Shown here piece after piece: positions 188-49,981 of a stretch of DNA of 64,000 bases; the first letter of the stretch is position 1, and each line of letters opens with the position of its first letter. The notes below the pieces were generated by a model. That model saw nothing but the letters and a program-made list of their open reading frames with translations, searched no databases and was not told the origin of the DNA. The position numbers and the translations under genes are program-made. This DNA is from Minisyncoccota bacterium (GTDB lineage Bacteria > Patescibacteriota > Minisyncoccia > Phycocordibacterales > UBA2100), in NCBI GenBank assembly GCA_036517195.1, contig DATDXU010000002.1:20635-84634 (forward strand), in the 5' to 3' direction.

Positions 188-1084
188 TCACATTTTTTCA
201 TCCATGTGCCGATTCCACTGCTTGTAAAAGCTTTGGAACGATTCTTTTTCAGCTAGAGGAACGGTTACAACGGAGAGATTACACGCTCCTCCATACTCGC
301 GCAACACGCGAATGCGTTCATGAAATGCCTGTACTTCGCGTTCAATTGCTCCACCGCGTCTCATATCACAGATTTTAACTTTGCCGTCTTTTGGATTTTG
401 CAATGCAATCGAATGTCGAGTTGGGATGAATTTGCTCCACTCGTCGAGCACCACCGCATACACCTCGACACTTCGTTCACTATCAATGCCGCGCAGTGAT
501 TCAAGCGGCATAGAGGAGAGTGATGCGAGATCGGTAAGGAATACAACTAACGTATTCTTGAGTTTGAGTTCGTCTATAAGTTCTGGCAATGTGTGCGCGG
601 AAGACCGAAGTTGCAGTCTGTAGTCTGCCTTGTCGGCAGAGTCAAGGAAGGCGTGGAGGTCGCTTTCTTGTGAAAGCCAACCCGAATGTATCATGTGCGG
701 GCCCCCGATGCCGATAACCGCGAGTATGTTTTGAGATGCGAATGTCACGCGTCCCAAAAGAGAAAGGATAGCCATAGCACACGCGGATTTCTTTTTTGGG
801 TACAACATTGTTTCATGCTCATCGGCGATAACAAGAACGTGGATTTGGTGCTCGGGTGCGAATTCCCTCACTACCAAATCCACGCTTTCCGGTTGTCTGG
901 CCGATGCCATCCAATCCACATCGCGGGCAGAATCACCCTCCTGAAATTCGCGAAGTCCAAGAAATTCAATTCCGCGACCTCGTGCCATACTTTGCTCAAA
1001 ACCGAGAGAGATTTCTTTCCTAACCGATTCGAGCGCAAGCGTGACATCTCTAGGCAGAGGTTTGCCACTTTGTATGTTCCACAT
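188..1084 (-). CDS. DUF58-family protein (MoxR-associated, vWA-like fold)
   Basis: Contains the ...GIEFLGLREFQEGDSARDVDWMASAR... signature of DUF58 (GxxFxxxReYxxGDDxRxIDW). Start is placed at the ATG at 1084 (MWNIQ...), which has an upstream GGTGAGG SD lying in the end of moxR. The ORF is open up to 1162, so a start at 1111 is also possible. Confidence 0.8.
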   Translation of the reverse strand: MWNIQSGKPLPRDVTLALESVRKEISLGFEQSMARGRGIEFLGLREFQEGDSARDVDWMASARQPESVDLVVREFAPEHQIHVLVIADEHETMLYPKKKSACAMAILSLLGRVTFASQNILAVIGIGGPHMIHSGWLSQESDLHAFLDSADKADYRLQLRSSAHTLPELIDELKLKNTLVVFLTDLASLSSMPLESLRGIDSERSVEVYAVVLDEWSKFIPTRHSIALQNPKDGKVKICDMRRGGAIEREVQAFHERIRVLREYGGACNLSVVTVPLAEKESFQSFYKQWNRHMDEKM

Positions 1085-1088
1085 GCCC

Positions 1089-2330
1089 TCACCTTTTTTC
1101 CGCATATACATGGTTCCATACAACGTCGATAATTTCTTGCAAGATGAACTCTGCCATGGCACTTCTGCCGGTACGACCGAATTTTTTCCTCAATTCTTCC
1201 CTCATGTTTTCATGGGTCGACAGGGCATGGGGTGTCAGGTCTGTTCTATGCCGTATAACTGGTCGCAGGATTTCTTGTACATCCGCGAACGTGACGTAAT
1301 TTCTGTATCGTAGTGCCGCAATTGCGCGAGCAGCACCCTCCAAATGTGTAATACTGCGCCCGCTTAGAATCATGGTTCCGGGCCGTATCACTGCCTCGTT
1401 TTGGGGGAGCTGTAGGCGTTGCCGCAGTTTCTGCAGGAGGCAACCTTGGTCAATGGTGTTTAACGTTACCGCAAGTCCAGCCATGAAGTCTTCCATCTCG
1501 TCAGATATATGCACTGTTTCATGGAAGAAGAGGCGCGCTTTCACAATATCTTCATACGATCCTATTTTCGCTAATCGCATTTTTTGAAAGGTTCGCGTTC
1601 TTTTCAGGATCGTGCGGTAGTCTTCGCGGGTGAATGGTTTTTCAATCGCTTCAAACATAAAGCGGTCCCGCAGCGCGTCGGGCAACTTTTGGACACCTGC
1701 TGACTCGTCTGGGTTGTCGGTTGCAATGACGAACGGGTTCGCGATATGTTTTACACCGCGTATATGAACTTTTCCTTCGGACATTGACTCCAAGATGCCA
1801 GAGAGAGAGCGCGGACTGACACGCCTCATCTCGTCGAACAGGAGGATCTGGCTAAAAATGGGCCCCGGAACAAACTCCCGCCTTCTTTCATCGGGACCGC
1901 CAAATAGCATTTCCTGTCCCGTAATGTCTGTGGGCAAAAGTTCATTCGTGCCCTGAATTCTTTTGAAATCAGCCCCGACAATTTTTCGCGGTGTCATCCC
2001 AAGGAGGGACTTACCGGTGCCGGGAGGTCCAACAATATGAACGTGACCAGGGCCGAGGTGGTCTGGGTCTCTGTCGCCAATGGCGAACATGCCGATTAGG
2101 GTAACCAGCGTGGGCGCTCGTTGTCCGACGATGACTCGCCTGTATTGCGTTAGAAGCGGGTACATGAGACCGAGTACATGTCTGAGGTGTTCCTCGCCGC
2201 ACGTGGCGCCATTTTCCGGATAATATGTATCCATCTCTATATCTAACCCAGAAGGCAAAAATCGCCTGGCCTCCTCTTTTGTTACCAGAGGATGCTTGGC
2301 TTCTGCAGGTCCGCTTCTTTCGAATGCCAT
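1089..2330 (-). CDS. MoxR-family AAA+ ATPase
   Basis: Walker A GPPGTGKS and Walker B LLFDEMRRVSP, with the MoxR-like architecture. A strong SD (aagaggag) sits 8 nt before the ATG at 2330. There is an N-terminal extension of about 55 aa relative to typical MoxR. Confidence 0.88.
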   Translation of the reverse strand: MAFERSGPAEAKHPLVTKEEARRFLPSGLDIEMDTYYPENGATCGEEHLRHVLGLMYPLLTQYRRVIVGQRAPTLVTLIGMFAIGDRDPDHLGPGHVHIVGPPGTGKSLLGMTPRKIVGADFKRIQGTNELLPTDITGQEMLFGGPDERRREFVPGPIFSQILLFDEMRRVSPRSLSGILESMSEGKVHIRGVKHIANPFVIATDNPDESAGVQKLPDALRDRFMFEAIEKPFTREDYRTILKRTRTFQKMRLAKIGSYEDIVKARLFFHETVHISDEMEDFMAGLAVTLNTIDQGCLLQKLRQRLQLPQNEAVIRPGTMILSGRSITHLEGAARAIAALRYRNYVTFADVQEILRPVIRHRTDLTPHALSTHENMREELRKKFGRTGRSAMAEFILQEIIDVVWNHVYAEKR

Positions 2331-2440
2331 CGCACGCTCCTCTTTTTGATGGGTATTGTGGTGTCAGAGACCACTCTCATTAGAGTGTAGTGAGATTACA
2401 ACACACTGTCTATATGAGTGAAAACTAGAACACATAATAT

Positions 2441-2477
2441 AAAAAAAGAAAGAGCAGCTGTGGAGTAGCCGCTCTTT
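2441..2477 (-). terminator. rho-independent terminator after the HtrA-like gene
   Basis: On the minus strand, hairpin aaagagcggctactccacagctgctcttt is followed by a T-run (ctttcttttttt). Confidence 0.6.
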
Positions 2478-2489
2478 GCTATGTTTCAC

Positions 2490-3593
2490 TCATTTACCTA
2501 AGACGTAGGGTTCCAATACCATTTCACGACCCAATTTTTGTGTCCCGCGTTCAGTTGAAACTCGTACGCGTGTTCCTGGGGCAAGCTTGAAAAATGTTAC
2601 TTCCGCGAGTTCTCCGGCATGTGTGAAGGGGATGGTAACCCAACGTTCTTCACTGCCGACTTCAAATTTGACAATGGTGTCGCCGGCTAACATTCCCGCG
2701 CGAGCGGCCGGAGAATCCGGAGCGATGCGTAACACCACGACTCCCGATTTTTCCGGCGGATACTGGCCTTTCAATTTCAATTCAAACCAGTATGGATTGA
2801 CGCGTTCCGTGTCTGCAATCTGCCATCCTATACGCGCGTGAGAAACGGTGCGTTCCGCTTCCAGTTTCGGGAGTAAGAGGTCAACGACACGCGCGTGGAG
2901 ACTATAGCCAATGTTGCCGATAGTCTTTGCGTTCTCACTTTTGGAGACAGCAACCGCCGTATTCATACCAACGAACTCAAGGGCAAGTGGATAGGCGGTG
3001 GTTAGTGCAGAGTATCGCACGAGTGCTCCGCCTGACGAGCCGGGGGCGATGGGTGCCTGATGGCTGAAAAATAAGTCAAATCCACTTGATTGGGCGAGGG
3101 CCGACGTCTCTGAAACCACAAGACCGTACGAAATGGTTCGTGCCCCAGACGGGTACCCGATTGCATATACGGGATCCCCAACGTGGGCAGGAAGCGCCGC
3201 AAGTGGAAGCGGTATCGCAAAGCGCGTGAGCGGGTTTGGTGTCGCAAGAAGCGCGATGTCTACAAGTGGGTCAACGCCGAGCACCTGTACCTTATGCGCG
3301 AACGGTTCGCCATCGAACTGCACATACACGTGAGTTGCCTGACCCACGACATGTGCGTTACTTATGATTCGTGCCGTGCCGTCTTGCGTACGCACCAACC
3401 ATCCGGATCCGCTGCTTAAAGCGGGTTCCGCATCTTCCTTGACTTCCGCGGCGTACACCTTTACGACAAAGCGATGCATGTTTTTGTCGATACGTTGCAT
3501 TACCTCTTGCGGTGATTCTGTCAACGCATTGCTTCGCTCAGCAAAGCAGACCACGAGAGCGATGATTGCAATCGCCTGGAATATTCTTTTCAT
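2490..3593 (-). CDS. HtrA/DegP-like trypsin-fold serine protease with C-terminal PDZ domain, secreted
   Basis: N-terminal signal peptide (MKRIFQAIAIIALVVCFAERSNA). Catalytic-serine motif APGSSGGALV (GDSGGP-like), with His and Asp regions upstream. The C-terminal PDZ-like segment is VVVLRIAPDSPAARAGMLAGDTIV. The ORF can also start at a TTG at 3599. Confidence 0.82.
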   Translation of the reverse strand: MKRIFQAIAIIALVVCFAERSNALTESPQEVMQRIDKNMHRFVVKVYAAEVKEDAEPALSSGSGWLVRTQDGTARIISNAHVVGQATHVYVQFDGEPFAHKVQVLGVDPLVDIALLATPNPLTRFAIPLPLAALPAHVGDPVYAIGYPSGARTISYGLVVSETSALAQSSGFDLFFSHQAPIAPGSSGGALVRYSALTTAYPLALEFVGMNTAVAVSKSENAKTIGNIGYSLHARVVDLLLPKLEAERTVSHARIGWQIADTERVNPYWFELKLKGQYPPEKSGVVVLRIAPDSPAARAGMLAGDTIVKFEVGSEERWVTIPFTHAGELAEVTFFKLAPGTRVRVSTERGTQKLGREMVLEPYVLGK

Positions 3594-3703
3594 GCCCAAG
3601 TTCCTCGCTGTTCCCTATGTATCTTCGTTCACGCTACCTTCTCTCCTCCTTTAACGCAAGTTCCGCCATGGGTGCGGGGCTATGGTCACCGGGTATAAGA
3701 CAA

Positions 3704-3740
3704 GTGCAAAAGAAAATCCCCTACGCGTCTGGCGTAGGGG
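3704..3740 (-). terminator. rho-independent terminator after the batA-like gene (overlaps its last codons)
   Basis: On the minus strand, cccctacgccagacgcgtagggg is followed by attttcttttg. Confidence 0.6.
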
Positions 3741-4917
3741 AATGATTGATGCGTCCTAAGAATCGCATGAATGTTTTAAAGGACGCGCGCACAGAAGAAA
3801 GTAGCTTTGTGACGTATCCAAACACGATACATGCCACGAGAAGCGCGGGAATCAAAAACCAGTGTCCAATGGGTGTGTTGTGTACACGGGTTTCTGTTCG
3901 TATTGTTTTCCTGTGTTCCAGAATTGCTTGTTTCAGGTGCCCAATGAGGTCATCTTTGTTCGTGTAGTGCACATACCGATCCTTTCCTGAGATTTCTGTG
4001 AGAACTTTTTCATCAAGTTCGGAGAATAGTGGTTTGCTTTTTGGATTGCTCGGATCTTCAAGAGCGTATCCGGCAAACGCACCGGTTTTGTCTCGCGCGA
4101 TGAGCGGAACTCTCACACTCTTTCTGACCTCTGTTCCATCTTCTGATTTCGTGATTTCAACTTTCCCAATGCCGACCGTGTAGACAATTGTGTGTGGCAC
4201 GCGTCGCAATAGTGATGTGATGTGCTGGAGATCTTTGTAATTTCCTTCCTCTTTTCCTCCATCTGAAACCAGAACGACAATGTCCACCGTATCTTGATCG
4301 GGCGACGGGTGGCTTTTCACCATTCGTTCATACTCTTTGAACGCCCCAAGAATGTAGGTTCCCGGGTCGTTTATGGTCGTCTCATCTATTGCATCGATTG
4401 CGTCGATGAATTCGTCATAACTGTTTGAGAACGGCATGTAAGGGATGGCTGAACCCGCGAACGGTATGATCGCGCGATAGTAGGTGCCGCGCAGTTCTGG
4501 ATCTTTTTCAGTCATAGTTGCGAAATCCGCAAGTACGGATTTCGCCGCCGTTAAACGGTCCGGGAACGGTAGAACGTCGTGTGCCCACTTCATGGAAGGG
4601 GAGACGTCTTTCAGGAATGCTATGCGCACTCCTCCATAGACGGGACTTTTGGCTCTCGTTTGCCACAGGGGTTCTGCCCATACGAAAACGAGGCACGCCA
4701 TCACAAGCGAATATCCTACGGTGCGCGTAGCATATGCGAGCACGCGCGGGTCCGCCTCTTCTTTGTGGAGGGCTAGGAAACTATTGTTCCGTAACACTCT
4801 TTTCGTTGCCACGAAGTGCCACATGAAGAGTGCAACAATCGCGGGAAGCAGAAGTGCGAGCGCGAGAATCTTTTCTGGATGAAGAAACGTGACAGGTAGC
4901 CAGAGTATTTCGGGCAT
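3721..4917 (-). CDS. BatA-like membrane-anchored von Willebrand factor A (vWA) domain protein
   Basis: Begins with TM helices; MIDAS motif DVSPSM (DxSxS) and vWA core DIVVLVSDGG. Start is chosen at the ATG at 4917 (MPEILWLP...), which has a GGAGG SD, rather than the longer ORF to 5124 that would overlap the upstream gene. Confidence 0.8.
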   Translation of the reverse strand: MPEILWLPVTFLHPEKILALALLLPAIVALFMWHFVATKRVLRNNSFLALHKEEADPRVLAYATRTVGYSLVMACLVFVWAEPLWQTRAKSPVYGGVRIAFLKDVSPSMKWAHDVLPFPDRLTAAKSVLADFATMTEKDPELRGTYYRAIIPFAGSAIPYMPFSNSYDEFIDAIDAIDETTINDPGTYILGAFKEYERMVKSHPSPDQDTVDIVVLVSDGGKEEGNYKDLQHITSLLRRVPHTIVYTVGIGKVEITKSEDGTEVRKSVRVPLIARDKTGAFAGYALEDPSNPKSKPLFSELDEKVLTEISGKDRYVHYTNKDDLIGHLKQAILEHRKTIRTETRVHNTPIGHWFLIPALLVACIVFGYVTKLLSSVRASFKTFMRFLGRINHSPTPDA

Positions 4918-4978
4918 GTGTTCCTCCTTGAAAAAATGCCCCGATAGAAGCACGTTGCTTCCATCGGGGCTGTGATGG

Positions 4979-5749
4979 TTAGTGCCGTCGCGGACGATTG
5001 CTGCCTCCGGAGCCTGGTCCATCAGGATTCGCTCGTGGGGGAAGAGCTCGGGGACGATCGGGCGCGCCATCTCGCGTGCCGCGCCGGTTCTCTTCTTCTT
5101 GCGCTCGTTTGTAGAGAAATTCAATTGCTTCCTCTATCCCGATGCGCTTTGGAGCGAGTGCGTTCGCGCTCTGCAGATTTTTCATAGCATCATCGAGAAT
5201 GTCGAGCGCTTTGTCGTGCTCTTCTTTCCGAATGAATGCCAGCGAGCGATATTTTTCGTACGCCTTTCGATACTGGAGCGCCACGTTCCACTCAAGTGAA
5301 TTTTCCTTGCGTTCCAGCTTTCCAAGAAGTGCGTTCGCGCGCTCATGGAGCGCGCGCGCTTTGTTCAGATTCTCTTCAATGCCTGGGTCCTTGGCGTTTG
5401 CCCCGTAGAGTTCACCCGCGTTTCTTAACAGGCGATCTCGCTCGCCCGTTACCGCCTCGAGCATTCCAATAGTTGCGCGGTCGCTAGACGATATTTTTTC
5501 GCTGGGAGGTAGGGTGTGTACGAATGCGAGCACACCTTCCCACTCCTCTACAGTACGAGCACTTTCGGCGAGCTGTTCTGCTTTGCCGATGGTTTCGTCA
5601 TGTTGTTTCCACATGGCGAGGACCTGTTTTACACGCGCCGTGTGTCGCTTCTCGTTTGTGTCGACGTTTGAAGAAACCCAGGACATTCCTGCCCCGATGA
5701 GTGTTCCAAACGCCACACACAGCACGAGCGTGCGGTTTTGTAGGGTCAT
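4979..5749 (-). CDS. TPR/helical-repeat protein (BatC-like position in the cluster), N-terminal TM/signal
   Basis: N-terminal hydrophobic segment; helical, repeat-like composition (ALEYKRAYEKYRSLAF...); proline-rich basic tail. Overlaps the upstream vWA gene stop by 4 nt (5746-5749). Confidence 0.6.
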   Translation of the reverse strand: MTLQNRTLVLCVAFGTLIGAGMSWVSSNVDTNEKRHTARVKQVLAMWKQHDETIGKAEQLAESARTVEEWEGVLAFVHTLPPSEKISSSDRATIGMLEAVTGERDRLLRNAGELYGANAKDPGIEENLNKARALHERANALLGKLERKENSLEWNVALQYRKAYEKYRSLAFIRKEEHDKALDILDDAMKNLQSANALAPKRIGIEEAIEFLYKRAQEEENRRGTRDGAPDRPRALPPRANPDGPGSGGSNRPRRH

Positions 5750-6963
5750 GTGCTAATCCCTCCTTTTCCAATGGTACGCCCGAAGGGCGAGAGTGTTGCC
5801 GCAAGCCCAAGTAAGAGACAGAGGAAAGAGATGCTCGCAAAGAGCGATGTATAACTTTCCCTCTCCCACCGTTTTGCTGTGGACACCACACGAAAACGCG
5901 CAGAGAGAATTTTTTCCACAATCGCATCCATATCCTCGAAGTTTTGTTCACCCTTCAGAAGATAGAATGCCCCTCGATTCGGCCCGCCCACGGGACCGGA
6001 TCCTGTTTTTTCTGCAAGCTTCCGCACAACTTCATGATCTCGATAGATAGAAATGATGTAGATGGGGAGTTCGATGAATTCTGCCAATTGCATCATTTTT
6101 ATGAGAGACACGGGGGATTTGTGTAGCCGACCTTCGAATTGGCCCTCGTGAGCATCGGTGATGATGATGAAGGCCGTGTCTTTGAGGTCGGCACGCAGTC
6201 CTTCCAATTTTGCTTTGAGCGCGCGGGGAACAGCGTAACGTGTGTTTCCTGACTCTGGATAGAGCGAGAGCGCGAGCGCTCTCCGGTCTCCGTCGTCAAG
6301 CGGGACGACTCCATCCGCGCGTCTGAAGTTTTTCTGAAGCGCAACTTGAAACATATCCCACAATGCCAGGTGGTACTCGGTATAGATTCCCGTCCGCGGG
6401 TCTCTCCAATTTATTTCACGCATGAGTGTGCGTGCCCGTTCATAATCTGTGGAGCCATATAGTTCCACAAACGAAAACAAACCGAATCGTAACAGTCCTA
6501 TTTTGTCCTGACTGCCATCGTTCTTTTTCTTCACATAGGCTTCCATCGCGTCAATGATTTTGAACATTGCGCGGCATGCGTTAAAGATGCGCGGATAGGC
6601 CCGCTTAAGACCTTTGTCGGTGCAGTGAATCGGTGGACCGCTGGCGTCGAAGCCATACATTGAACTCGAATTATCGAGCGTTGTGTATAGTCGGTTCGTC
6701 GCATACTGGTCTTGTGCGACAGTGTACCTGCGTGTTATGTCTGAGAGCGCAAGGACGATACACAAGGCGCAGAGAAAGAAAAAGAGCCGTGGGACGATGA
6801 TTCTGGGTTGAAGTTGAAGCGGCGATGTATGCCCGCTCCACCCCTTCACCACGGCTCCTACTTTTTGTACCCCGAGTGTCGCACCGAGAAGTAGCGGCAC
6901 AAGAAGAAAGAGTGCTGGATAGAATCCGATTTCAAGTCCGAATAGTGTTGCGGAGTACCCCAT
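5746..6963 (-). CDS. BatB/BatA-like membrane vWA-domain protein
   Basis: Two N-terminal TM helices, then the MIDAS motif LDNSSSM (DxSxS). The start overlaps the stop of the upstream BatD-like gene. Confidence 0.8.
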   Translation of the reverse strand: MGYSATLFGLEIGFYPALFLLVPLLLGATLGVQKVGAVVKGWSGHTSPLQLQPRIIVPRLFFFLCALCIVLALSDITRRYTVAQDQYATNRLYTTLDNSSSMYGFDASGPPIHCTDKGLKRAYPRIFNACRAMFKIIDAMEAYVKKKNDGSQDKIGLLRFGLFSFVELYGSTDYERARTLMREINWRDPRTGIYTEYHLALWDMFQVALQKNFRRADGVVPLDDGDRRALALSLYPESGNTRYAVPRALKAKLEGLRADLKDTAFIIITDAHEGQFEGRLHKSPVSLIKMMQLAEFIELPIYIISIYRDHEVVRKLAEKTGSGPVGGPNRGAFYLLKGEQNFEDMDAIVEKILSARFRVVSTAKRWERESYTSLFASISFLCLLLGLAATLSPFGRTIGKGGIST

Positions 6964-8642
6964 TAGGCACCTCGTTTTCCATCAAGTTGAAGGGCGAGTG
7001 TTTTGATCGTGTTGTATGTATCGTCGAAGATCGTGCGCAGTACGACTGAATCTTGTTTTGCAAATCCACGCGCGTTGCGTGATTCGATATGTTCGAATAG
7101 TTTTTCGAACCCGCCTTCTGGCGTGAAGATGAAATAAGCCTTCTTGTTTTCATGTGTTTCAAGAAGTTTTTTAACATCTTGATAGGTAACGTTATTTTCT
7201 GGAAACCTCGAATCATATGCGTGCAGTATGTGCGATAGAGCGTCATGCAAATACTGCATTGCCAGTACGGCGCCCTTCTCTTTCCTTGCCTTTTCATAGA
7301 GTTCCTCAAGACGGATTTTATAGGTATCCGGAGTGCCCGAGAACATACGTGGCGCTATACGGACACCGAGCTCGGTAAGTGCGAGCGCAATCAGGATACC
7401 TGATGCGGCGATGCTTACCCACAACACGCTCTTGAGTGCTTTTCGCCCGCCCAGCGGTTTTGCGATGACGTCAAACCAGGCGTGTTCGGGCGACGGTAAG
7501 GCGCGCGGGTTTTTTTGAGGTTTGATAGTCGGAAAAAGATATGCTTCCGGCATATCTTCGAGCTTGTAACGCTCATCTATGTGCGGGCGGACAAAAAATG
7601 TCGTCGCCCGCACGGATGCCACGCGAGGAATCCCCTTGTACTGATAGGGAATCTGAAAGCTCGGAATGCTCCACTCCGTCTCCGGCGCATAGAGCCCCAT
7701 GGTGTACCTGTGTTCAAGGTACCATTCGTTGGGCCCCACCTGGCGACGTTCACTTTTTTGAAGATCTGAAACTTCCCAAAATGATGTTTGTGGAAGTTTC
7801 CCAAGCGCTACCGGCGCAAAGGTTCCTTGCATGAGCTCTGGAATATCTGTCGTCTCGATCACGACGTCACCTTCCTTGCCGAATATACGCACCCCAAGTG
7901 TTACGGTTCGTTTTTCGCCGACCGTTCCGGACACGGGAGTGACAGAAACGGTTGCGATAACTGGCGCGTGCAGGAATGCGAATTTCGGATACGCGCGCTT
8001 CACCCACACGGCGTTTGATGTATTCGTGAGATTCGCGAGAGAGAGCGCGTGAAGGGGAATTTTTTTGTCGCCCAAGAAAAACATGTTTTTGAACGACACG
8101 TGCCACGTCCCGTTTTCGGGAGTGATTTCACGCAGAGCCATGTCCTCACCAAAAAGTTCTTCGAGGGCCGCCTTCACGGTGTTTCCCGCCATGGGGGTTG
8201 TGGTTTGAATGTACATTCCATCAACCACTGCCTCCATTCCGTCAACGATGAATACGGGAGCGCTGTCGAGTGTCGCGTCTGCCGCGATACGTTGAAGGAT
8301 ACGGACCATGTCGCTTGCGTCTTGACCAGGTATGAATTCGAGTGCGAATTCCGCTCCCGAGCTCGTACTTTGAATGTCTTTGATCGCAAGCGGAGCATAG
8401 CGCTCCAAATGCTTTATGGAGGTCACTGTCTTTTGGCCTCGAAACCGCACGACAACTGACGGCGCAAGCCGTAGTGGCATACGCAATCCATTCGCCGAAA
8501 AGTAATAGAACTCTTCGCGCGAAATAATGCGCTGTTTTACTGGTGTGGTGGCGACTCGTGTCTCTGGAGGCGTTGTTTGTGCCATGCCCGAACCCGAAGA
8601 GAGGGCGAGGGCTAAGGCACAGAAGGCCAAAATGTGCCTCAT
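6963..8642 (-). CDS. BatD-like protein (signal peptide, large extracytoplasmic domain, one C-proximal TM helix, cytoplasmic tail)
   Basis: Signal peptide MRHILAFCALALALSSGSGMAQ. TM helix near residue 410 (VLWVSIAASGILIALALTELGV), followed by a roughly 125-aa tail. The assignment rests on topology and position in a Bat-type cluster. SD is taggagtaa. Confidence 0.6.
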   Translation of the reverse strand: MRHILAFCALALALSSGSGMAQTTPPETRVATTPVKQRIISREEFYYFSANGLRMPLRLAPSVVVRFRGQKTVTSIKHLERYAPLAIKDIQSTSSGAEFALEFIPGQDASDMVRILQRIAADATLDSAPVFIVDGMEAVVDGMYIQTTTPMAGNTVKAALEELFGEDMALREITPENGTWHVSFKNMFFLGDKKIPLHALSLANLTNTSNAVWVKRAYPKFAFLHAPVIATVSVTPVSGTVGEKRTVTLGVRIFGKEGDVVIETTDIPELMQGTFAPVALGKLPQTSFWEVSDLQKSERRQVGPNEWYLEHRYTMGLYAPETEWSIPSFQIPYQYKGIPRVASVRATTFFVRPHIDERYKLEDMPEAYLFPTIKPQKNPRALPSPEHAWFDVIAKPLGGRKALKSVLWVSIAASGILIALALTELGVRIAPRMFSGTPDTYKIRLEELYEKARKEKGAVLAMQYLHDALSHILHAYDSRFPENNVTYQDVKKLLETHENKKAYFIFTPEGGFEKLFEHIESRNARGFAKQDSVVLRTIFDDTYNTIKTLALQLDGKRGA

Positions 8643-8749
8643 GTGTTTATTTACTCCTATACTGTAGAGTCAATGATCACTACTTCGGATACTATATTGT
8701 ATTTTGCCCTCTCGCAATCATGGGGGGCTTGCCATGGGTTTAATGCCTT

Positions 8750-10462
8750 TTATGTGGCGGGTTTTGAACGAATCATGAAACGTTCTATATCTTCATACGT
8801 TCCCCCGACTTTTTTGCCAGGATTGAAGACTCCGTGCGGGTCGCATATGTTTTTAACCTCGGCGAACAATTCCAACATGCGCGGAGAGAACATGAGTGAC
8901 AGATAAGGGGTGCGGATAATGCCGTCGCTGTGTTCTCCCGTGATAGAACCTTTGAAACGCGCGACGAGTTCATATACTTTCGGAGTAAGTTCACGTATCA
9001 CTGTTCTGTGTTCCGGGTTCGAGAGGTCTACCAGTGGAATGATATGGAAATTTGCGTCCCCGATGTGTCCCGCGATGGTGTAGATAATGTTGTATGTTGA
9101 AAGGAGTTTTGTTAACTCCGGCAAAAAACGCGGATAGTCATCTGGGTGCACGATGATGTCGTCTATAAAGGGGGACGCGCGGAGTCCTTTAAAGTTTTTG
9201 CGCAACAACGAGAAACTTTCCCGACGAATTTTCCAGTATTTTTTCGATTCCGTTTTTCCGAATGCTAGGCGCGCCTTGATATTGATATCGTTGAGCAAGT
9301 TTTTGGCGCTACGGGCAGCTTCCTGTGCATCCTCTAAAGAGTTTTCCGCAAATTCTGCAATGAGGACGAGTTTTGGCACGCCACCGGAGAGTGTCATCCA
9401 CACTTCTGGAAGAAATGCGAGCGCCAGCGCGAGCGCTTCTCGAAGCCTCAGGTGTTGCAAAAATTGCCATCCATAGCGCACCGCGAGTTTGAATGTGTGG
9501 TCGTCGTACGATTCGAATGCTTCAGGGTTGAATTTTAAAACACGATGTACTATGTCGGGCAGGGTAGTGAGGTCTTGTAGAAATATGACGAGCATTGCGC
9601 GCGCAGTTTTTGGTTCGACAAGGGCGAATTTCGCTTTCGTAATGAACGCGAGAGTGCCTTGCGAGCCGCAGATGAGTTTCGTGAGGTCAAATGTTTTTTG
9701 TTTCTTATCTATAACATCCCACAAGGCATAGCCGGCGGAATTTTTTGAAACACGCGGACGCGCGGATTCTATTACTTCTTTGTTCGTTTCCAGAAGGGTG
9801 TGCATTTTTCGGTATACCTCTCCTTCGAATGTGTGCAGGGATTTTTTTTGAGCGAGCTCGTGTTCGGTGAGCGGTTTTAATGTTGCAGATGAGCCATCTC
9901 CAAGAACGACATCAAGCTCTTGCACGTAGCGGTCTGTTTTTCCATAGCGGAGAGAAAGTTCACCTCCCGCGTTGTCTGCAATCATGCCCCCCATGGCGCA
10001 TATTTCACGCGACGCGGGGTACGAGGGAAGGATCATACCTGTTTTTTTGAGCACCTCACGCTCAAAGTCTCGGTAGTACATTCCCGGCTCAACAGTTGCC
10101 CCATTGTGACTGGCGTCGAGTAATGTATTCATGTGTTTTGTACAGACGGCGAGAATTGAACTGGTGAGCGGTCCCCCCGTCATATCCGTTCCTCCCGCGC
10201 GCGCTGTTAAAGAAACGGCATGCCCCCGCTCTTTTTCTTTCAGAATAAAACGTACGAGGGCGGCTACATCGGAAGCGTTTTTTGGGAATACCACAACCTC
10301 TGGGGTTTGTTCAAAAATGCTCGTGTCACGACTGTACTTTTTTCGTGTCTCTGTGTCATCGAGCACCTCACCTTCAATCTGTGAGGCAATGTGGTCGCGG
10401 AGGGAAGATGTCATAGTGATAAGTATATCCCCACACGAACCACATATTCGTTTTCTAAACAT
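8750..10462 (-). CDS. FAD-linked oxidase (FAD_binding_4/PCMH-type; glycolate oxidase GlcD / D-lactate dehydrogenase-like)
   Basis: FAD-binding motif ...SLTARAGGTDMTGGPL... and the full two-domain length. The true start may be the internal ATG at 10414 (MTSSLRDH...). Confidence 0.8.
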   Translation of the reverse strand: MFRKRICGSCGDILITMTSSLRDHIASQIEGEVLDDTETRKKYSRDTSIFEQTPEVVVFPKNASDVAALVRFILKEKERGHAVSLTARAGGTDMTGGPLTSSILAVCTKHMNTLLDASHNGATVEPGMYYRDFEREVLKKTGMILPSYPASREICAMGGMIADNAGGELSLRYGKTDRYVQELDVVLGDGSSATLKPLTEHELAQKKSLHTFEGEVYRKMHTLLETNKEVIESARPRVSKNSAGYALWDVIDKKQKTFDLTKLICGSQGTLAFITKAKFALVEPKTARAMLVIFLQDLTTLPDIVHRVLKFNPEAFESYDDHTFKLAVRYGWQFLQHLRLREALALALAFLPEVWMTLSGGVPKLVLIAEFAENSLEDAQEAARSAKNLLNDINIKARLAFGKTESKKYWKIRRESFSLLRKNFKGLRASPFIDDIIVHPDDYPRFLPELTKLLSTYNIIYTIAGHIGDANFHIIPLVDLSNPEHRTVIRELTPKVYELVARFKGSITGEHSDGIIRTPYLSLMFSPRMLELFAEVKNICDPHGVFNPGKKVGGTYEDIERFMIRSKPAT

Positions 10463-10509
10463 TCTTATACCACATCACAAAGGACGGTCTTTTTTGTATG
10501 CAAGTCTGA

Positions 10510-10534
10510 AATAACGACCCCGTAGGTCGTTATT
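10510..10534. repeat. small palindromic hairpin aataacgacc-ccgta-ggtcgttatt (member of the cgacc...ggtcg hairpin family)
   Basis: Inverted repeat read directly. It shares the core cgacc-N5-ggtcg with the hairpins at 11069-11097 and 23234-23262. Confidence 0.45.
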
Positions 10535-10628
10535 GTTGATGGATGGTATCAAGCCGTCGAACCATTACGAATCCTTGACAGATTGTATTATAATTTGCAT
10601 AATGTCTTTGGTGGTTCTAAGTTTTGTC

Positions 10629-10826
10629 ATGGAGGAGATGATGAAAGAGTCAACTCGCGGGAAAATTGTCGCAGTGAACGACAACGTCGTGTCCGTGAAA
10701 TTTGGGCGCGACATGTCGAATGAATCGCAGAGAACCGTATTCTATATTCCGCGAGAAGGGGTGGCAGAAATTCTACTAGATGTGTTTCCGGAAGGAATCA
10801 CACCGTCTCTCGCGAATAACAGGTAG
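10629..10826 (+). CDS. hypothetical small protein (65 aa)
   Basis: ORF starting MEEMMKESTRGKIVAVNDN..., with no recognisable motif. The coding call is weak. Confidence 0.3.
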   Translation: MEEMMKESTRGKIVAVNDNVVSVKFGRDMSNESQRTVFYIPREGVAEILLDVFPEGITPSLANNR

Positions 10827-10905
10827 AACCATATTGGACGCCCCTCTTCGGAGGGGTAATTTTTTTACTCGCGACGTAAGCAAAGCTTTCCGGCAGCGCT
10901 CATTC

Positions 10906-11097
10906 GGAAGCGGAAAAATTCATTTTTCCGCTTCACTCATTCTCTTGCCGGTAGAGTGAGCGATCCCGCAAGCTTGCGGGGATCCGAGCCCTGCCTGCGG
11001 CAGGCAGGCGAGGAGCGAGAAAGGTACAAGCCATGGGGCTTGCCCCCGCGTACCTTTACCAGTCATCAGGATGAGCGACCTCGTAGGTCGCTCATCC
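10906..11097. repeat. REP/BIME-like hairpin cluster (copy 2): five consecutive palindromes at 10906-10934, 10962-10984, 10988-11009, 11020-11057 and 11069-11097
   Basis: Sits between convergent genes. The palindrome gccctgcctgcggcaggcaggc, together with its flank, is a reverse-orientation copy of 61-96. The last hairpin carries the cgacctcgtaggtcg core. Confidence 0.55.
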
Positions 11098-11135
11098 TGC
11101 AAAAATCTTGAATGCTGATGGGGTAGGGCGTTTTT

Positions 11136-11897
11136 TTATTGAGAACACCGAGTGTTTAGTTTTTTAAGCACGATAATTGTTTCTTCGGGTCCGGAGACCT
11201 GTCGCGTTTGTATCCCCGTTGGAATAACAGCGGCGTCGTTGCCTCCTTCATACAGCGCGTCTCCGATAAACAACATGTCTTTTGTTTCGACACCGAGACG
11301 GTTTGCCAGATAGCGAATGCCGTATGCCTTATCAATGCCTTTTCGCGTCATTTCAACAGTTGTGGTGCCGCCTATATGCACCTCACAGTCGGGCAGCGCT
11401 ACTTGGAGTTTTTTGTGCAAAGGAATCCGTTTTTTCTGGTCTGGGTCCCACGCTTCTTTTTCGACAATCGGCGCGTCAATACCGAGACCCGCAAACGCAA
11501 TTGCGGCACCTCGGTCATCAATACGTGGCCCCCACGAAGGCAACCCTTCCACAATTTTTAAATCCTCAATAATTTTTTGGAGCACGGAGGTGATGTGGGT
11601 GCATTCGCCTCGCGTGAACGCGTGGTTGTATAAGGTTTCATCGGCTCCGCCATTCCACAGATGACACTCCGCGGCGGCATTTGGAAATACATAGAATGAC
11701 GCCGTGTCCGTTTTTGGGAGACGAGACAGGAAATTTTTGTGAAGAATTGGAAACGCGCTCCCAGACATAATTGCCGCTGTTGTTTTGCCCGCAAGTGCTA
11801 TGAACAATTCTGACACCGATGCCTCAATCGGTTGTCGGCTTTTTGAAAGGGTGCCGTCAAAGTCAAACACGACTGCTTTTGGACATGCGTTACCCAT
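11136..11897 (-). CDS. HAD-superfamily hydrolase (IIB/Cof- or phosphomannomutase-like)
   Basis: Motif I VVFDFDGTLS (DxDGT) near the N-terminus; C-terminal FIGDALYEGGNDAA (motif IV). Confidence 0.75.
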   Translation of the reverse strand: MGNACPKAVVFDFDGTLSKSRQPIEASVSELFIALAGKTTAAIMSGSAFPILHKNFLSRLPKTDTASFYVFPNAAAECHLWNGGADETLYNHAFTRGECTHITSVLQKIIEDLKIVEGLPSWGPRIDDRGAAIAFAGLGIDAPIVEKEAWDPDQKKRIPLHKKLQVALPDCEVHIGGTTTVEMTRKGIDKAYGIRYLANRLGVETKDMLFIGDALYEGGNDAAVIPTGIQTRQVSGPEETIIVLKKLNTRCSQ

Positions 11898-11981
11898 GCA
11901 TACAAATATAGCACCATGTATTCTTTAAAAATTTTGCCCCCGCGTAAGCGGGGGCATGCGTGACTTTTTATAGCGTCGTTT

Positions 11982-12416
11982 CTATTTCTGTGTCTTTCTG
12001 TTTATCCAGCGGTATATAATCACCGCGCCTCCAACGGGATAACCGATTACAGGCATGCTGACAAGAAAAAGAATTCCGAAGTGTTCTTTATCGCCGTATA
12101 TTTGCGCAACAGCCGCTGTAATTACAGAAAAGACAGCGCAGAATACAACGGCGAGTAACACGAACGCCATCTGCCCGTGTGTTGTGCTCATCGCGAACAA
12201 GAGTAGCGGCAGTCCAAGTGAGGGAAGTCCACAGGATGCGATGTATCCACCGTGGGTGTGTGCCAAAATCACTATGCACGCCACGGATACGAACGCCATT
12301 ACACTCGCCACACGTGTCCACACATGCGCGTCTGGCGTTACATAGTCGTACGCGATTCCTCCCGCGAGGTTTTGCAAGAGGAATATTACCAGTCCCACCA
12401 ATCCGATTGCGCCCAC
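11982..12416 (-). CDS. hypothetical 4-TM membrane protein
   Basis: Four hydrophobic helices. GTG start at 12416 preceded by an aggag SD. Confidence 0.55.
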   Translation of the reverse strand: MGAIGLVGLVIFLLQNLAGGIAYDYVTPDAHVWTRVASVMAFVSVACIVILAHTHGGYIASCGLPSLGLPLLLFAMSTTHGQMAFVLLAVVFCAVFSVITAAVAQIYGDKEHFGILFLVSMPVIGYPVGGAVIIYRWINRKTQK

Positions 12417-18147: not shown

Positions 18148-18654
18148 ATGGCGCGAGTGAGTATTATTGCGGCGTGTGGAGCTTCGACGCGAGCGCTTGG
18201 AAAAAACAACACGCTTCTCTGGCACATACCAGAAGATTTGAAACGCTTTAAGCGTCTCACGCTCGGGCATCCCGTTATCATGGGACGCAAAACATTTGAA
18301 TCAATTGTGAGCTACCTCGGAAAACCTCTTCCTGGGCGCACCTCAATTGTTTTAACAAAGAATTCAAATAACGATTTACGAAATCGTTATGAGGTGGTAA
18401 TCGCGGGGTCACTGGAAGAGGGAATTAAGAAAGCGAAAGAATTGGATGACGAGGAAATTTTTATCGTGGGAGGCGCTTCCGTGTATGAACAGGCGCTTCC
18501 ACTCGCGGATCGCCTGTATCTCACGCTTGTTGAGGACGAGAAAGAAGGAGATACGTATTTTCCACCGTATGAGAATGTGTTTACAAAAATTGTGTCCGAA
18601 GAGGGTCACGTGTGGCAGGGAATTAGTGTTAGGTTTCTCGTGCTTGAGAGGTAG
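18148..18654 (+). CDS. folA: dihydrofolate reductase
   Basis: MARVSIIAACGASTRALGKNNTLLWHIPEDLKRFKRLTLGHPVIMGRKTFESI is typical DHFR. Confidence 0.92.
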   Translation: MARVSIIAACGASTRALGKNNTLLWHIPEDLKRFKRLTLGHPVIMGRKTFESIVSYLGKPLPGRTSIVLTKNSNNDLRNRYEVVIAGSLEEGIKKAKELDDEEIFIVGGASVYEQALPLADRLYLTLVEDEKEGDTYFPPYENVFTKIVSEEGHVWQGISVRFLVLER

Positions 18655-19688: not shown

Positions 19689-20141
19689 ATGGGGGTGACA
19701 AGGAAGAAAAAGAAGGTTGGTATTACCGCTGGCGCGCTTGATTTGTGCCATGCGGGGCACTTTTTGATGCTTGAGGAGGCAAGGAGGGTGTGTGATTACC
19801 TCATCGTGTGTCTTCAGGAAGACCCGTCGCGCGACAGGCCTGAAAAAAATAAACCCATTATGTCTATGGCAGAACGCATGACCATACTGCGCGGAATTCG
19901 CTGGGTTGATGAAGTGGTGCCGTATAAAACAGAGCGTGATTTATACAACATTTTACGTTCGCGTAAGCCGGACATTCGTATTATCGGGGCGGATTGGAAA
20001 GGCAAACTATACACCGGGCATGATTTGCCGATAACAATGTATTTTAATTCACGTTCGCATTCCTACTCATCGTCCAATATACGCGAACGCGTGTGGGCGG
20101 CGGAAGATGCAAAACGTCGCGCAAAAAAGAAGAAGCGCTGA
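19689..20141 (+). CDS. cytidylyl/adenylyltransferase-like nucleotidyltransferase (RfaE domain II / TagD-like)
   Basis: HIGH-type motif GITAGALDLCHAGH. Pattern ...IVCLQED...RPIMSMAERMTILRGIRWVDEVVPY resembles HldE C-domain/TagD. Start is taken at the internal ATG (MGVTRKKKK). Confidence 0.7.
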   Translation: MGVTRKKKKVGITAGALDLCHAGHFLMLEEARRVCDYLIVCLQEDPSRDRPEKNKPIMSMAERMTILRGIRWVDEVVPYKTERDLYNILRSRKPDIRIIGADWKGKLYTGHDLPITMYFNSRSHSYSSSNIRERVWAAEDAKRRAKKKKR

Positions 20142-20146
20142 TTTCG

Positions 20147-20911
20147 CTACACAACAAATAGCACGAATACAAGCACAAGCAGAATACGGTATATGCCGAA
20201 TAGTGTAAATGAGTGTGTTTGTACATAACGCATAAGCCACATCGCGGCGACTAGGGCGACCACGAACGAGGTCAAGAATCCTGCGCCAAGAAGTGCGGCA
20301 TTATCCCACGTAAAAATTTCAATATTTTTTGCTATGTCATATCCTGTCGCGGCAAGCATGGTGGGTATTGCGAGGAGGAAAGAAAACTCAACGATGACTG
20401 TGCGACGAAGCCCCAACAAAAGACCTCCGACAATTGTTGCGCCGGCGCGCGACACGCCGGGAATAATTGAAAGTGCTTGAAACAAACCGATGAATAGGGA
20501 TTGGCTGTAGGTAACATCATTCACCTCACCTTCTACCACTTCTTCTTTGTGCCACCATTCAAGAGCGATGAGTATCACGCCTCCAAGAAAGAGCGCCCAC
20601 AACACGACAGATGTGTTGCCGAGGAGGTATGTTTTTATGAATGGATACAACAGGAATCCGACGATTCCTGTTGGGACGAAAGCGACCGCTAATTTTTTTA
20701 TACGTTCCGTATGCAACAGTGAACGCCAACATAAAGCGACGATGGCAAGAATTGCTCCGCACTGAATCAGTATTTCAAAACTTTTGACAAATGTTGTTTG
20801 CTCTATACCTAAAAGAGAACTCGCAAGAATGAGATGTCCCGTGGATGAGATAGGCAGAAACTCCGTCGCACCCTCAAGGGCGCCGAGCAGGATACTTTCA
20901 AAAAGGGACAT
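20147..20911 (-). CDS. uppP: undecaprenyl-diphosphatase
   Basis: MSLFESILLGALEGATEFLPISSTGHLIL... is the hallmark BacA/UppP motif, with about 8 TM helices. Confidence 0.92.
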   Translation of the reverse strand: MSLFESILLGALEGATEFLPISSTGHLILASSLLGIEQTTFVKSFEILIQCGAILAIVALCWRSLLHTERIKKLAVAFVPTGIVGFLLYPFIKTYLLGNTSVVLWALFLGGVILIALEWWHKEEVVEGEVNDVTYSQSLFIGLFQALSIIPGVSRAGATIVGGLLLGLRRTVIVEFSFLLAIPTMLAATGYDIAKNIEIFTWDNAALLGAGFLTSFVVALVAAMWLMRYVQTHSFTLFGIYRILLVLVFVLFVV

Positions 20912-20991: not shown

Positions 20992-21570
20992 CTACTGTTT
21001 TTTTCCTCCCTCGTCTTCCTCTGTCTCAATGCAAGACCACACGGCGAAGGATCTTTTTTTGTCTCCTGCCTGTTGCCAGAATGCGACACAGATAACATTT
21101 TCAGCGTACTTCTTTGCATATTGCACAACAAAACCAATGCCATGTTGGGCTTTCATACCGGCATTCTGATATGCCAAGCCAATGACTTGTCCGGCGTACT
21201 CACCAGCATTCTGGTATGCCACACCAATGAACTGATAGGCCTCCTTACCAACATTTTGATATGTCAGACCAAGTCCTTGCCAGGCGTCCTGACCGGCATT
21301 CTGGCATCCGACATGTATAACAGCAAGCGCGTTTTTTTTGGCGTTTTGGTATACAGAGAACAGTGAGATAAGGTCTCCTTCTGAATACGCGTTACCGGCG
21401 ATCGTAAACACAGTGTTACCGGTTGTGACTGGTGCGCATAGCGCCGCAATCAGCAATGTGGTTGTAGCGGTGACGGAGAGCGTTTGGTCTCCCATTAACC
21501 ACCAAGCCACGAGAGAATACAAAATTGTGGATAGTAGCCACAAAAAAATGTTTTTTGCCGCGACACTCAT
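20992..21570 (-). CDS. membrane-anchored protein with about six tandem 15-residue repeats (consensus Y-Q-N-A-G-x-x-A-x-Q-x-I-G-[LV]-A)
   Basis: N-terminal TM segment(s) followed by repeats with QN[AV] at residues spaced exactly 15 apart. This corresponds to 45-nt DNA repeats at about 21100-21370. Start chosen at the ATG with a ggggag SD (MSVAAK...); the ORF is open to 21588. Confidence 0.55.
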   Translation of the reverse strand: MSVAAKNIFLWLLSTILYSLVAWWLMGDQTLSVTATTTLLIAALCAPVTTGNTVFTIAGNAYSEGDLISLFSVYQNAKKNALAVIHVGCQNAGQDAWQGLGLTYQNVGKEAYQFIGVAYQNAGEYAGQVIGLAYQNAGMKAQHGIGFVVQYAKKYAENVICVAFWQQAGDKKRSFAVWSCIETEEDEGGKKQ

Positions 21571-23133: not shown

Positions 23134-23233
23134 CTCGACACCTCTTGCCCCTTGTTCAATATATTCTTTCTCTATTGTAAGACATCAAAACGGAAGATTT
23201 TTAACGTGCCGTGAATAACAACTTTTGCAGAAA

Positions 23234-23262
23234 CAATGACCGACCTACGAGGTCGGTCATTG
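23234..23262. repeat. palindromic hairpin caatgaccgacc-tacga-ggtcggtcattg (cgacc...ggtcg family)
   Basis: 12-bp perfect stem read from the sequence, immediately upstream of the -35 element. Confidence 0.45.
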
Positions 23263-23291
23263 TTGACATGCGAATGTAGTCCTAGTAGACT
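23263..23291 (+). promoter_or_regulatory. sigma70-type promoter TTGACA-17-TAGACT
   Basis: Consensus -35 at 23263-23268, a 17-nt spacer, and -10 at 23286-23291. It lies about 45 nt upstream of the ATG at 23338. Confidence 0.5.
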
Positions 23292-24383: not shown

Positions 24384-24503
24384 AGAACGTGAAATGAGTC
24401 GAAAGAGGTCACGGCTTCGCCGTGACCTCTTTCATATTCTTGTTGCATCTTTTTGCCATCGGAGCACAATTGGTTTTGGCAATAGAGGACGAAGGAGGTG
24501 GCG

Positions 24504-35975: not shown

Positions 35976-36012
35976 GGGACGGAAGGTGTAACCTTCCGTC
36001 CCTTTCTTTTTT
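35976..36012 (+). terminator. rho-independent terminator ggacggaagg-tgtaa-ccttccgtcc + ctttctttttt
   Basis: 10-bp perfect stem plus a T-run, directly after prkA. Confidence 0.7.
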
Positions 36013-49119: not shown

Positions 49120-49140
49120 TCTCTTTTGTAATAACTCCTT

Positions 49141-49851
49141 CTACCAAGGTCTTACCTTGGTAGAAACCTTGTCGTCTTCCGAATGTGCGTATATTTTTGC
49201 CTCTTCAATTAATTGTGACACAGATTGAGGTGTCTCCAAGATCTCAAGGACGGCGTCTTTGTTGATGAGGGAACTTTCTGGGCGGATTTCATCTGAACAG
49301 TAATCAGGGAAACTCGAATAACGATATTTTGATAAAAAAGATCTCAATCTCCTTTCATTTCTGACTACGCCTTTTTTCCAAGCAGACTCGATCAATTCGG
49401 CTGGGTTTGCGTGGATATAGCTTACGACTCTGTTGAAATTTTGGTCGGACACGATTCGTTTTGATTTAAAAGCACCCTGAAACAAAGACCCACTACGTTC
49501 GTACTTAATATTGAAGTACATTGCATACCCCGTTCCCACTCGACGCATAAAAGATGTTATGCCTCCAGGGTCGTGTTCACGTAGAAGTAAGTGATAATGA
49601 TTTGACATGAGACAGTATGCGCCAATGTCTACTAGTGTTTCTTTTCTCTCAACTGTCGCCATAACATCTACTAAGGTCTTACCTTGGTAGATGTTGCTGA
49701 CATGAATTGAATCGTGACTGTTGCACGCATAGAGGAGCATCAAGAAGCGCTCATGGTCTTTTGGATTCTCAAAGATGGTGCGCTTTTCAACGCCACGGTT
49801 GAAGCAGTGATACCACTCATTTGGTGCGAAGGGTGATGCGCGTTCGGCCAT
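49141..49851 (-). CDS. IS200-like / REP-associated tyrosine (Y1, HUH) transposase
   Basis: HUH motif CLMSNHYHLLL and catalytic-Tyr motif VVSYIHANP. Length 236 aa. The stop codon lies inside the left palindrome. Confidence 0.75.
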   Translation of the reverse strand: MAERASPFAPNEWYHCFNRGVEKRTIFENPKDHERFLMLLYACNSHDSIHVSNIYQGKTLVDVMATVERKETLVDIGAYCLMSNHYHLLLREHDPGGITSFMRRVGTGYAMYFNIKYERSGSLFQGAFKSKRIVSDQNFNRVVSYIHANPAELIESAWKKGVVRNERRLRSFLSKYRYSSFPDYCSDEIRPESSLINKDAVLEILETPQSVSQLIEEAKIYAHSEDDKVSTKVRPW

Positions 49852-49901: not shown

Positions 49902-49981
49902 AAGGGGATTGTTGACTTATAAATCCAATCGTGGTACATAGATTCTAGTCATCAATCTTACAAAAGAAGGAACACGCGGCA

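Follow-up and report, generated by a model that had tools for sequence, protein, structure and literature searches.

The window analysed here is a 64,000-nt stretch of contig DATDXU010000002.1 (assembly GCA_036517195.1) of a Minisyncoccota bacterium, and we describe in it an array of hairpins that fills a non-coding spacer of ~270 nt (10868-11135) directly past the stop of a gene for a HAD hydrolase. With a probability of roughly 0.6, this spacer and a solitary hairpin at 10510 make up a mosaic, built from short and for the most part perfect palindromes that belong to several dispersed repeat families. The families in question include family A, with T-ACG-A at its centre, and a longer unit named element C. 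Copies of both were counted in 82 kb of the source genome, i.e., in a part of it; the sequence was extended 9 kb rightward of the window, and the third copy of element C was reached in this way. Relatives were sampled at 80 DHFR-anchored loci (683 kb in total), and family A was counted in 724 kb from Kaiserbacteria-like relatives and, for comparison, in 830 kb of loci from mixed phyla.

All six hairpins that a preliminary description had listed for the region are present at their places, well beyond chance expectation; perfect hairpins with a stem of at least 8 bp number 41 in 73 kb, against 8.8 ± 3.4 in shuffles. The first, W1 (AATAACGACC-CCGTA-GGTCGTTATT, 10510-10534), is a family-A palindrome with a 10-bp stem and a 5-nt loop, placed in a divergent region between the start of a FAD oxidase gene (10462) and the promoter of a small open reading frame (ORF). 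Within the spacer follow hp1 (GAAGCGGAAAAAT-TC-ATTTTTCCGCTTC, 10907-10934), a perfect 13-bp stem with a 2-nt loop, and hp2 (GATCCCGCAAGCTTGCGGGGATC, 10962-10984), whose arms GATCCCGCAAGC and GCTTGCGGGGATC pair with one bulged G. The next two, CCTGCCTGC-G-GCAGGCAGG at 10990-11008 (9-bp stem, 1-nt loop) and a two-tier hairpin AAAGGTAC..GTACCTTT at 11020-11057, had been taken as separate, but by alignment with a copy outside the window both are parts of a single element C unit. The array closes with W2 (CAGGATGAGCGACCT-CGT-AGGTCGCTCATCCTG, 11067-11099), again of family A, with a 15-bp stem and a 3-nt loop; it lies 36 nt downstream of the HAD stop, has a T-run on neither side and matches 23236-23260 at 92%. 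RNA folding, which had been proposed as a check, bore out the structure of 10870-11135 (z = -5.5 on the + strand and -6.3 on the - strand). The predicted fold of an array transcript reaches about -118 kcal/mol over 266 nt, and overlapping alternative pairings also exist within the region.

Family A has the consensus TAWCGACyT-ACG-ArGTCGWTA and four copies in the 82 kb of the source genome. Three of them, W1, W2 and W3, have the core CGACC-(Y)CGTA-GGTCG in common, and the threefold occurrence of CGACC-N5-GGTCG noticed earlier stands against an expectation of 0.06. W3 (AACAATGACCGACCT-ACG-AGGTCGGTCATTGTT, 23232-23264) adjoins a promoter-like site, TTGACA-17-TAGACT, read from the sequence only, and W4 (ATAACGATTT-ACG-AAATCGTTAT, 18368-18390) lies in frame in the DHFR gene (18148-18654, + strand), where it encodes NNDLRNRY. 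In the relatives, perfect hairpins are centred more often on T-ACG-A/T-CGT-A than on anything else (19 of 234), and palindromes with stems of at least 6 bp occur at such centres 33 times, compared with 1.5 expected. With stems of at least 8 bp, the Kaiserbacteria-like sequences hold 19 copies and those of other phyla none. The core is conserved and the arms vary between copies, each copy being exactly self-complementary; between W1 and W3, differences in arms and flanks appear mirrored on both arms. Half-sites are not enriched outside palindromes, and the palindrome itself is therefore the unit. In-frame copies occur in DHFR, BacA, PurL and PurQ genes, and on a crude ORF map, on which the ORF coverage of all palindromes was judged, 19 of 22 copies fall in ORF-covered sequence.

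Two other readings of family A were set aside. DNA uptake sequences are out, given the lack of enrichment of half-sites outside palindromes. For integron attC sites, W1 offers AAATAAC ... GTTATTG and W2 nothing similar, and on inspection the R''/R' pattern RYYYAAC ... GTTRRRY is unmatched. One relative (L308) combines in its PurL gene two tandem in-frame palindromes of another family, B (..TYQGPTLVNYQGRTLVY..), with a family-A copy, and carries another family-A copy in PurQ (7066-7110, 7742-7766 and 8672-8698).

Element C is a repeat unit of ~80 nt, present in three copies in these 82 kb. Its core in the array (r2, 10983-11060, + strand) runs from TCCGAGC through the extended CCTGCCTGC-G-GCAGGCAGG hairpin and the linker CGAGGAGCGAGA to the two-tier hairpin ending ...GTACCTTTAC. 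The copy r3, at 20096-20185 of the extended locus (L341; ~window position 72,100, 8 kb past the window), is ~90% identical to r2 over ~80 nt and has the same two-hairpin layout, with one A-U pair of r2, read on its + strand, appearing as G-U; a wobble in r1 implies the opposite strand. The latter copy (57-150, - strand, inverted relative to r2) is truncated and divergent; a profile made of r2 and r3 retrieves it with E = 7e-6. An inverted copy near 61-96 had already been noticed, and it is confirmed at 63-102 (40 nt at 75% identity; local alignment 96, against 35 ± 6 in shuffles). The copy r1 holds the hairpin 72-96 and lies between the convergent genes for DsbB (stop 54-56) and DUF58 (stop 188). 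The wider region 28-185, offered as a further site of the same elements, retains this copy, but its hairpin at 32-49 falls in the 3' end of the DsbB gene and is not intergenic.

Upstream of the core, a 5' segment (TTTTTTTACTCGCGACGTAAGCAAAGCTTTC, 10861-10890, + strand) is common to r1 and r3, with a similarity so weak that nhmmer alone missed it; the pattern, a T-run followed by ACTCGCGAC..GCAAAGC, precedes the core in all three copies. Segment and core are separated by 10 nt in r3, by a 13-bp hairpin in r1 and by 92 nt, comprising hp1 and hp2, in r2. The r1 hairpin (101-130) differs from hp2, in whose place it stands, and a 7-nt direct repeat, CTCATTC (10899-10905 and 10936-10942), brackets hp1. 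To judge from this arrangement, the pair hp1/hp2 looks like successive palindromes added inside an existing palindromic element. No relatives of hp4 or of the array tail were found across the fetched loci, and hp4 was assigned to element C via the rightward extension.

The CCTGCCTGC hairpin also occurs far outside this lineage. Its core, GCCCTGCCT(N0-4)GCGGCAGGCAGG, was found in at least 119 species representatives of many phyla (L134-L252) with unrelated flanks, often nested in other palindromes or beside extra CCTG/CAGG units; the source genome was not evident among the matches listed. In IMG/VR, the 19-mer CCTGCCTGC-G-GCAGGCAGG gave six matches (L335-L340), compared with none for either of two control palindromes matched in composition; some of the excess is to be expected, since one arm of a palindrome fixes the other and the information amounts to ~10-12 nt. 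In the same collection, the 15-mer CGACCTCGTAGGTCG gave single chance-like matches among the matches listed. The pattern CCTGCCTGC-N3-GCAGGCAGG had no matches, because the actual loops are 1 and 7 nt long. The hairpin alone is a cosmopolitan 'word', and in the source genome the repeat unit is longer, namely element C.

The DHFR genes deserve special attention, as W4 is located in one of them. Among 51 distinct orthologues, 15 carry a perfect palindrome (8-18 bp) in one and the same surface loop, belonging to family A, to family B or to other, unrelated sequences. Loops without a palindrome have 15 residues (a few are longer), whereas those with a palindrome average 18 (Mann-Whitney p = 0.0009). 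The family-A triplet occurs as ACG or as CGT at identical codon positions in different orthologues (..NDLRSRY.. turning into ..NDFVSRY..), and arm differences are mirrored on both arms. From this pattern we infer that the DHFR palindromes are probably maintained at the DNA level, via recombination between arms or template switching. DHFR-loop palindromes were recorded at 18368-18390 of the window, at 581-609 of one syntenic relative (L253) and in L255-L334. More perfect palindromes with stems of 9-11 bp are ORF-covered in the window, at 20648-20673 (BacA ORF), 4520-4545, 40698-40725, 47837-47861 and 28420-28438.

Different lines of comparison show the array to be lineage-specific and polymorphic, and to be neither a conserved RNA gene nor a series of canonical terminators. 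In one strain variant (L007), 37 nt of the array (~10999-11035) are missing, others have single-base changes in hp2, and several short contigs of other assemblies end within it, at 10872 or 11028. The array was not found in the orthologous spacer of six relatives, and a conserved non-coding RNA (ncRNA) at that place was rejected on this ground. One syntenic relative (L253/L257) has a different small ORF there, apparently broken by hairpins of another family, and in L267, L268, L275, L276 and L296 other genes follow the HAD end, in some with little spacer. The FAD oxidase has its nearest homologues, at no more than 70% identity, in metagenome-assembled genomes of Candidatus Kaiserbacteria or Patescibacteria, and the HAD-hydrolase protein is encoded identically on contigs of Rifle aquifer groundwater metagenomes; no close relative with an identity between 70% and ~100% was found for comparison. 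The organism is accordingly Kaiserbacteria-like and belongs to the candidate phyla radiation. A search of Rfam 15 gave no gathering-score match in the whole window, a permissive one of 10400-11200 and r3 only chance-level miRNA-type matches (E of at least 0.27), and a tRNA/tmRNA scan was negative. T- or A-runs are absent beside all array hairpins, and a terminator consensus scan of 10300-11300 detected a single site, at 10840-10867; other gene ends in the window do have hairpin and T-run terminators.

That site belongs to the small ORF, and the organisation of the region differs here from the earlier account, in which essentially every base was part of a stem-loop. In fact 10535-10870, or 57% of the span, consists of a promoter, a 74-codon ORF and a terminator. 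The promoter is sigma-70-like (TTGACA-17-CATAAT, 10575-10603, + strand, 11 of 12 consensus matches). The ORF (10602-10826, + strand, alternative ATG at 10629) is called as a 74-aa gene in public assemblies and its record carries the NCBI label Candidatus Paceibacterota; it is an orphan, with no Pfam match and no homologue besides itself in 5.8 billion protein clusters. Its canonical intrinsic terminator (GCCCCTCTTCGGAGGGGT, then T7; 10840-10867, + strand) immediately precedes the array. A placement of the array 'between convergent genes' is accurate for this ORF and the HAD gene, but not for the two large flanking genes, as the - strand encodes FAD oxidase (8750-10462) as well as HAD hydrolase (11136-11897).

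In L253, the small ORF at the corresponding place is not homologous to that of the window. On our reading, it is a helix-turn-helix-like ORF between HAD and FAD oxidase (9640-9770, equal to 1040-1170 of L257), split by a composite palindrome; of its two hairpins, CAGACCCACAGGGTT(T)AACGCCCTGTGGTGTCTG is present again at 243-275 of the same locus. The insertion has ..TTTAC at both borders. The same relative has the DsbB gene directly after FAD oxidase (11637-12056), whereas an 8.5-kb cluster (188-8642) lies between them in the window, encoding MoxR (AAA_3), DUF58, VWA, a Trypsin_2/PDZ protease and three products without Pfam match. The element C copy r1 sits at the DsbB-side junction of this cluster. 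Further along L253 (13240-14612), near HisRS, a reverse transcriptase gene (RVT_1) beside a bAvd gene resembles a diversity-generating retroelement; at the matching place in the source genome (L131/L132 15143-15499, ~3 kb left of the window start), there is only a 23S_rRNA_IVP/Avd-like gene.

The hairpins had been compared with repetitive extragenic palindromic (REP) sequences and bacterial interspersed mosaic elements (BIMEs), and a link had been suggested to a gene for a REP-associated tyrosine transposase (RAYT) at 49141. The ORF concerned (49141-49851, - strand) scores 29.8 bits with Pfam Y1_Tnp (cut-off 23) and 41.7 with NCBIfam REP_Tyr_transpos, below the cut-off of 80, and its translation reads NHYH at the motif. 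It is a distant RAYT-like member and has the features of RAYT/TnpA-REP genes, namely a Y1 HUH domain with an HxH motif, a single copy and palindromes of 12-13 bp on both sides. Homologues form at least 640 clusters, some of them named RayT by JGI; a sequence search of the protein against solved structures gave nothing significant. The palindromes around it constitute family B (TTCTACCAAGGT..ACCTTGGTAGAA), with copies at both flanks (49139-49165 and 49877-49903) and a third that keeps the reading frame within the ORF (49667-49691, ..YQGKTLV..). The arrangement recurs in relatives, where eight homologous genes have their own variants of family B, palindromes with 1-nt loops, to either side. The suggested link was not supported, since neither family A nor element C borders any of these genes. 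Genuine REP-RAYT arrangements exist in the lineage, and the array hairpins are not their REPs. There is an indirect connection, as one and the same DHFR loop holds family A in some species and family B in others, and W2 and W3 have outer arms (GATGAG.. and CAATGA..) that resemble family-B arms of relatives, which is a likeness only. RAYT-like genes are known from many phyla, REP insertion within tnpA-REP genes has been reported as typical of RAYT subclass 2.4, and genomes with RAYTs are on average larger than those without (PMC6006769).

From the comparison with REPs and BIMEs, the dispersal of palindromic repeats and their clustering in a mosaic remain valid; four of the six hairpins belong to recurring families, and units of 19-33 nt with stems of 9-15 bp are short palindromes in the sense used for REPs (20-40 nt). 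The BIME architecture is missing: a BIME has one REP family in alternating orientation with defined linkers, and the array consists of hp1, hp2, element C and one family-A unit, partly nested. Several other points weigh against an origin of the array from dispersed repeat families of this kind. The GTAG or CGTC tag of classical REPs is absent at the foot of the hairpins (GTAG occurs in W1-W3 in the loop and 3' arm, where most relatives have GTAA), and the extragenic location found for the array's own copies does not extend to family A overall. No transposase is tied to family A or element C, and no sampled RAYT-like gene has either of them at its flanks. The occurrence of family A at orthologous DHFR positions points to long vertical persistence, not to recent mobility. 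Both hp1 and hp2 are without relatives in any sequence sampled and may have arisen in situ. In addition, the copy numbers cover 82 kb and not the whole genome, the relatives were drawn from around DHFR alone, which biases the view of where copies are located, and the tally of 12 among 14 family-A stem pairs that change on both sides is partly circular, members having been picked for perfect stems.

The remark that such elements are little documented outside Proteobacteria was overstated. Tagged REPs have been reported in >80 species of 8 phyla, and both their presence outside Proteobacteria and copies inside genes are already documented (PMC3733652). What stands is that no paper tying REPs to bacteria of the candidate phyla radiation (CPR, or Patescibacteria) was found in the literature searched; searches with the hairpin sequences gave nothing relevant. 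We tentatively propose, at a little under even odds, that Kaiserbacteria-like CPR bacteria harbour an undescribed population of perfect palindromes (families A and B and others), located in spacers and in frame in specific surface loops of housekeeping enzymes, long-lived through correction between arms with loop inversion, and a counterpart of the Rickettsia palindromic elements (RPE).

The units would be non-autonomous palindromic elements, which spread and persist in DNA as single-strand hairpins. HUH/Y1 (RAYT-like) enzymes acting in trans would be the likeliest mobilisers, because the lineage has such genes, flanked by family B, which shares gene loops with family A. Templated correction from arm to arm might keep each copy perfectly symmetric, and would account for both the loop inversion between orthologues and the mirrored arm changes. 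If new units preferred sites in or beside existing hairpins, permissive spacers would become arrays. If transcription of the HAD gene, which lacks a canonical terminator, runs into the array, the RNA would fold into a very stable 3' structure; this could shield the mRNA 3' end or hinder transcription from continuing into the convergent unit, an effect that we consider incidental or a secondary use.

The last point can be turned around, with the array seen as a device for termination or mRNA 3'-end protection that evolved in place, its hairpins selected as RNA and their repeat likeness being secondary. The position directly past the stop of a HAD gene that has no canonical terminator would suit such a device, as would the extreme stability of the fold on both strands, and roles of REPs in termination and mRNA stabilisation are established (background in PMC3733652). 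Each of the three copies of element C can moreover be seen as lying past the stop of a gene, always oriented alike with respect to that gene, but by chance such agreement in three of three would occur with a probability of ~0.25, and convergent genes surround two of the copies. We regard this explanation as unlikely. The five array hairpins all lack a U-tract in an organism that does use hairpin and T-run terminators, with an example at 10840-10867 next to the array; relatives have almost no spacer at the corresponding gene end, family-A copies also occur upstream of promoters and in coding regions, and a strain without 37 nt of the array exists.

A second alternative takes 10510-11099 as a hairpin-bounded mobile cassette of the palindrome-associated IS200/IS605 type, with W1 and W2 (CCGTA and TCGTA) as ends and the orphan ORF as cargo. 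W1 and W2, oriented alike, do enclose the promoter, the ORF with its terminator, and the array, the syntenic relative has another, non-homologous small ORF at this place, and short contigs of other assemblies end at 10872 or 11028. These breaks are inside the segment, however, and not at W1 or W2, the arms of which differ strongly; no second cassette or ORF copy was found in the 5.8 billion protein clusters, and family A is mostly single and also occurs in genes. Such a cassette is quite improbable. Marginally less credible still is the idea that family A represents operators of a dimeric DNA-binding regulator, in the manner of CIRCE and HrcA, with W1 and W3 controlling adjacent promoters. Genomes with DHFRs only 50-65% identical share the conserved core CGAC(y)T-ACG-A(r)GTCG, and a -35 box directly adjoins W3 while another follows 40 nt downstream of W1; against this, many copies are in coding regions at unrelated positions (DHFR, BacA, PurL and PurQ), W2 is behind a gene end, half-sites alone are not enriched, and complementarity extends over 10-15 bp through non-conserved arms, for which an operator has no need. 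Least probable of all is a structured ncRNA at 10870-11135, either a small RNA or a functional cis-regulatory element of a 3' untranslated region, which would fit the fold z-scores and the layout and A-U to G-U change shared by r2 and r3, but has no match in Rfam under permissive thresholds either, neither a promoter nor a terminator belonging to it (its start directly follows the terminator of another unit), no counterpart at the orthologous locus, polymorphism among strains, hairpins equal on both strands as expected of DNA palindromes, and wobbles in r1 and r3 that imply opposite strands.

Read as a mosaic of dispersed palindromes, the array has partial counterparts in known systems. It resembles the REPs and BIMEs of Enterobacteria and Pseudomonas and the REPIN-RAYT systems in its short dispersed palindromes (25-35 nt) and in forming mosaics in 3' intergenic spacers; the single-copy RAYT-like Y1 gene of the source genome, with palindromes on both sides, is REPtron-like. 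In contrast to these systems, the palindromes flanking that gene are other ones than those of the array, an unpaired GTAG foot tag is missing, the stems are perfect with loops of 1-3 nt, many members are in genes, unrelated units are mixed, and the host is a CPR bacterium. No dedicated transposase is known either for the CGTC-tagged REPs, which include the RPE of Rickettsia and the dRS3 elements and intergenic mosaic elements (NIMEs) of Neisseria; shared with them are also in-gene copies with an intact frame and intergenic mosaics, the latter as in the NIMEs, treated as clusters of CGTC-1 units (PMC3733652). The array differs from them in having neither a CGTC tag nor a CCA tail and in its host phylum, and RPE are 100-150 bp long, compared with 21-33 bp for family A. 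Palindrome-associated transposable elements (PATEs) derived from IS200/IS605 have hairpins of the type used by single-strand Y1 transposases, and two like-oriented hairpins around an orphan ORF recall them; unlike PATEs, the segment has no TnpA or TnpB in or near it and no second copy, and its end hairpins are perfect palindromes, whereas IS200/IS605 ends are imperfect with distinct left and right versions. Intrinsic terminators are likewise GC-rich stem-loops just past stops, but the array has five hairpins in a row, with no U-tract after any of them.

CPR bacteria are known for very small, streamlined genomes. With several palindrome families, a filled 270-nt spacer and copies in essential genes, this lineage would be a case of hairpin DNA, selfish or semi-domesticated, that lasts under strong genome reduction. 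If the proposal is correct, these bacteria would offer a natural system for how DNA hairpins arise, persist and are tolerated in genes, and the copies in DHFR orthologues form a clean comparative data set on the upkeep of perfect palindromes at the DNA level. On the practical side, the contig ends inside the array suggest that such repeats may fragment CPR metagenome assemblies; palindromic repeats also spawn spurious small ORFs and can mislead predictors of terminators and ncRNAs.

Besides the palindromes discussed above, tandem or periodic repeats were noticed within ORFs of the window: a 1718-aa ORF (27887-33043) contains at 32398-32946 a family of 51-136-nt repeats, and a 45-nt periodic repeat is found at 21133-21303. 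A further perfect hairpin, GAAAGAGGTCACGGC-TTC-.., with a 15-bp stem and a 3-nt loop, is located at 24401-24433. Another at 35976-36002 (GGGACGGAAGGT-GTA-.., 12-bp stem, 3-nt loop) precedes a T-run and resembles a terminator.

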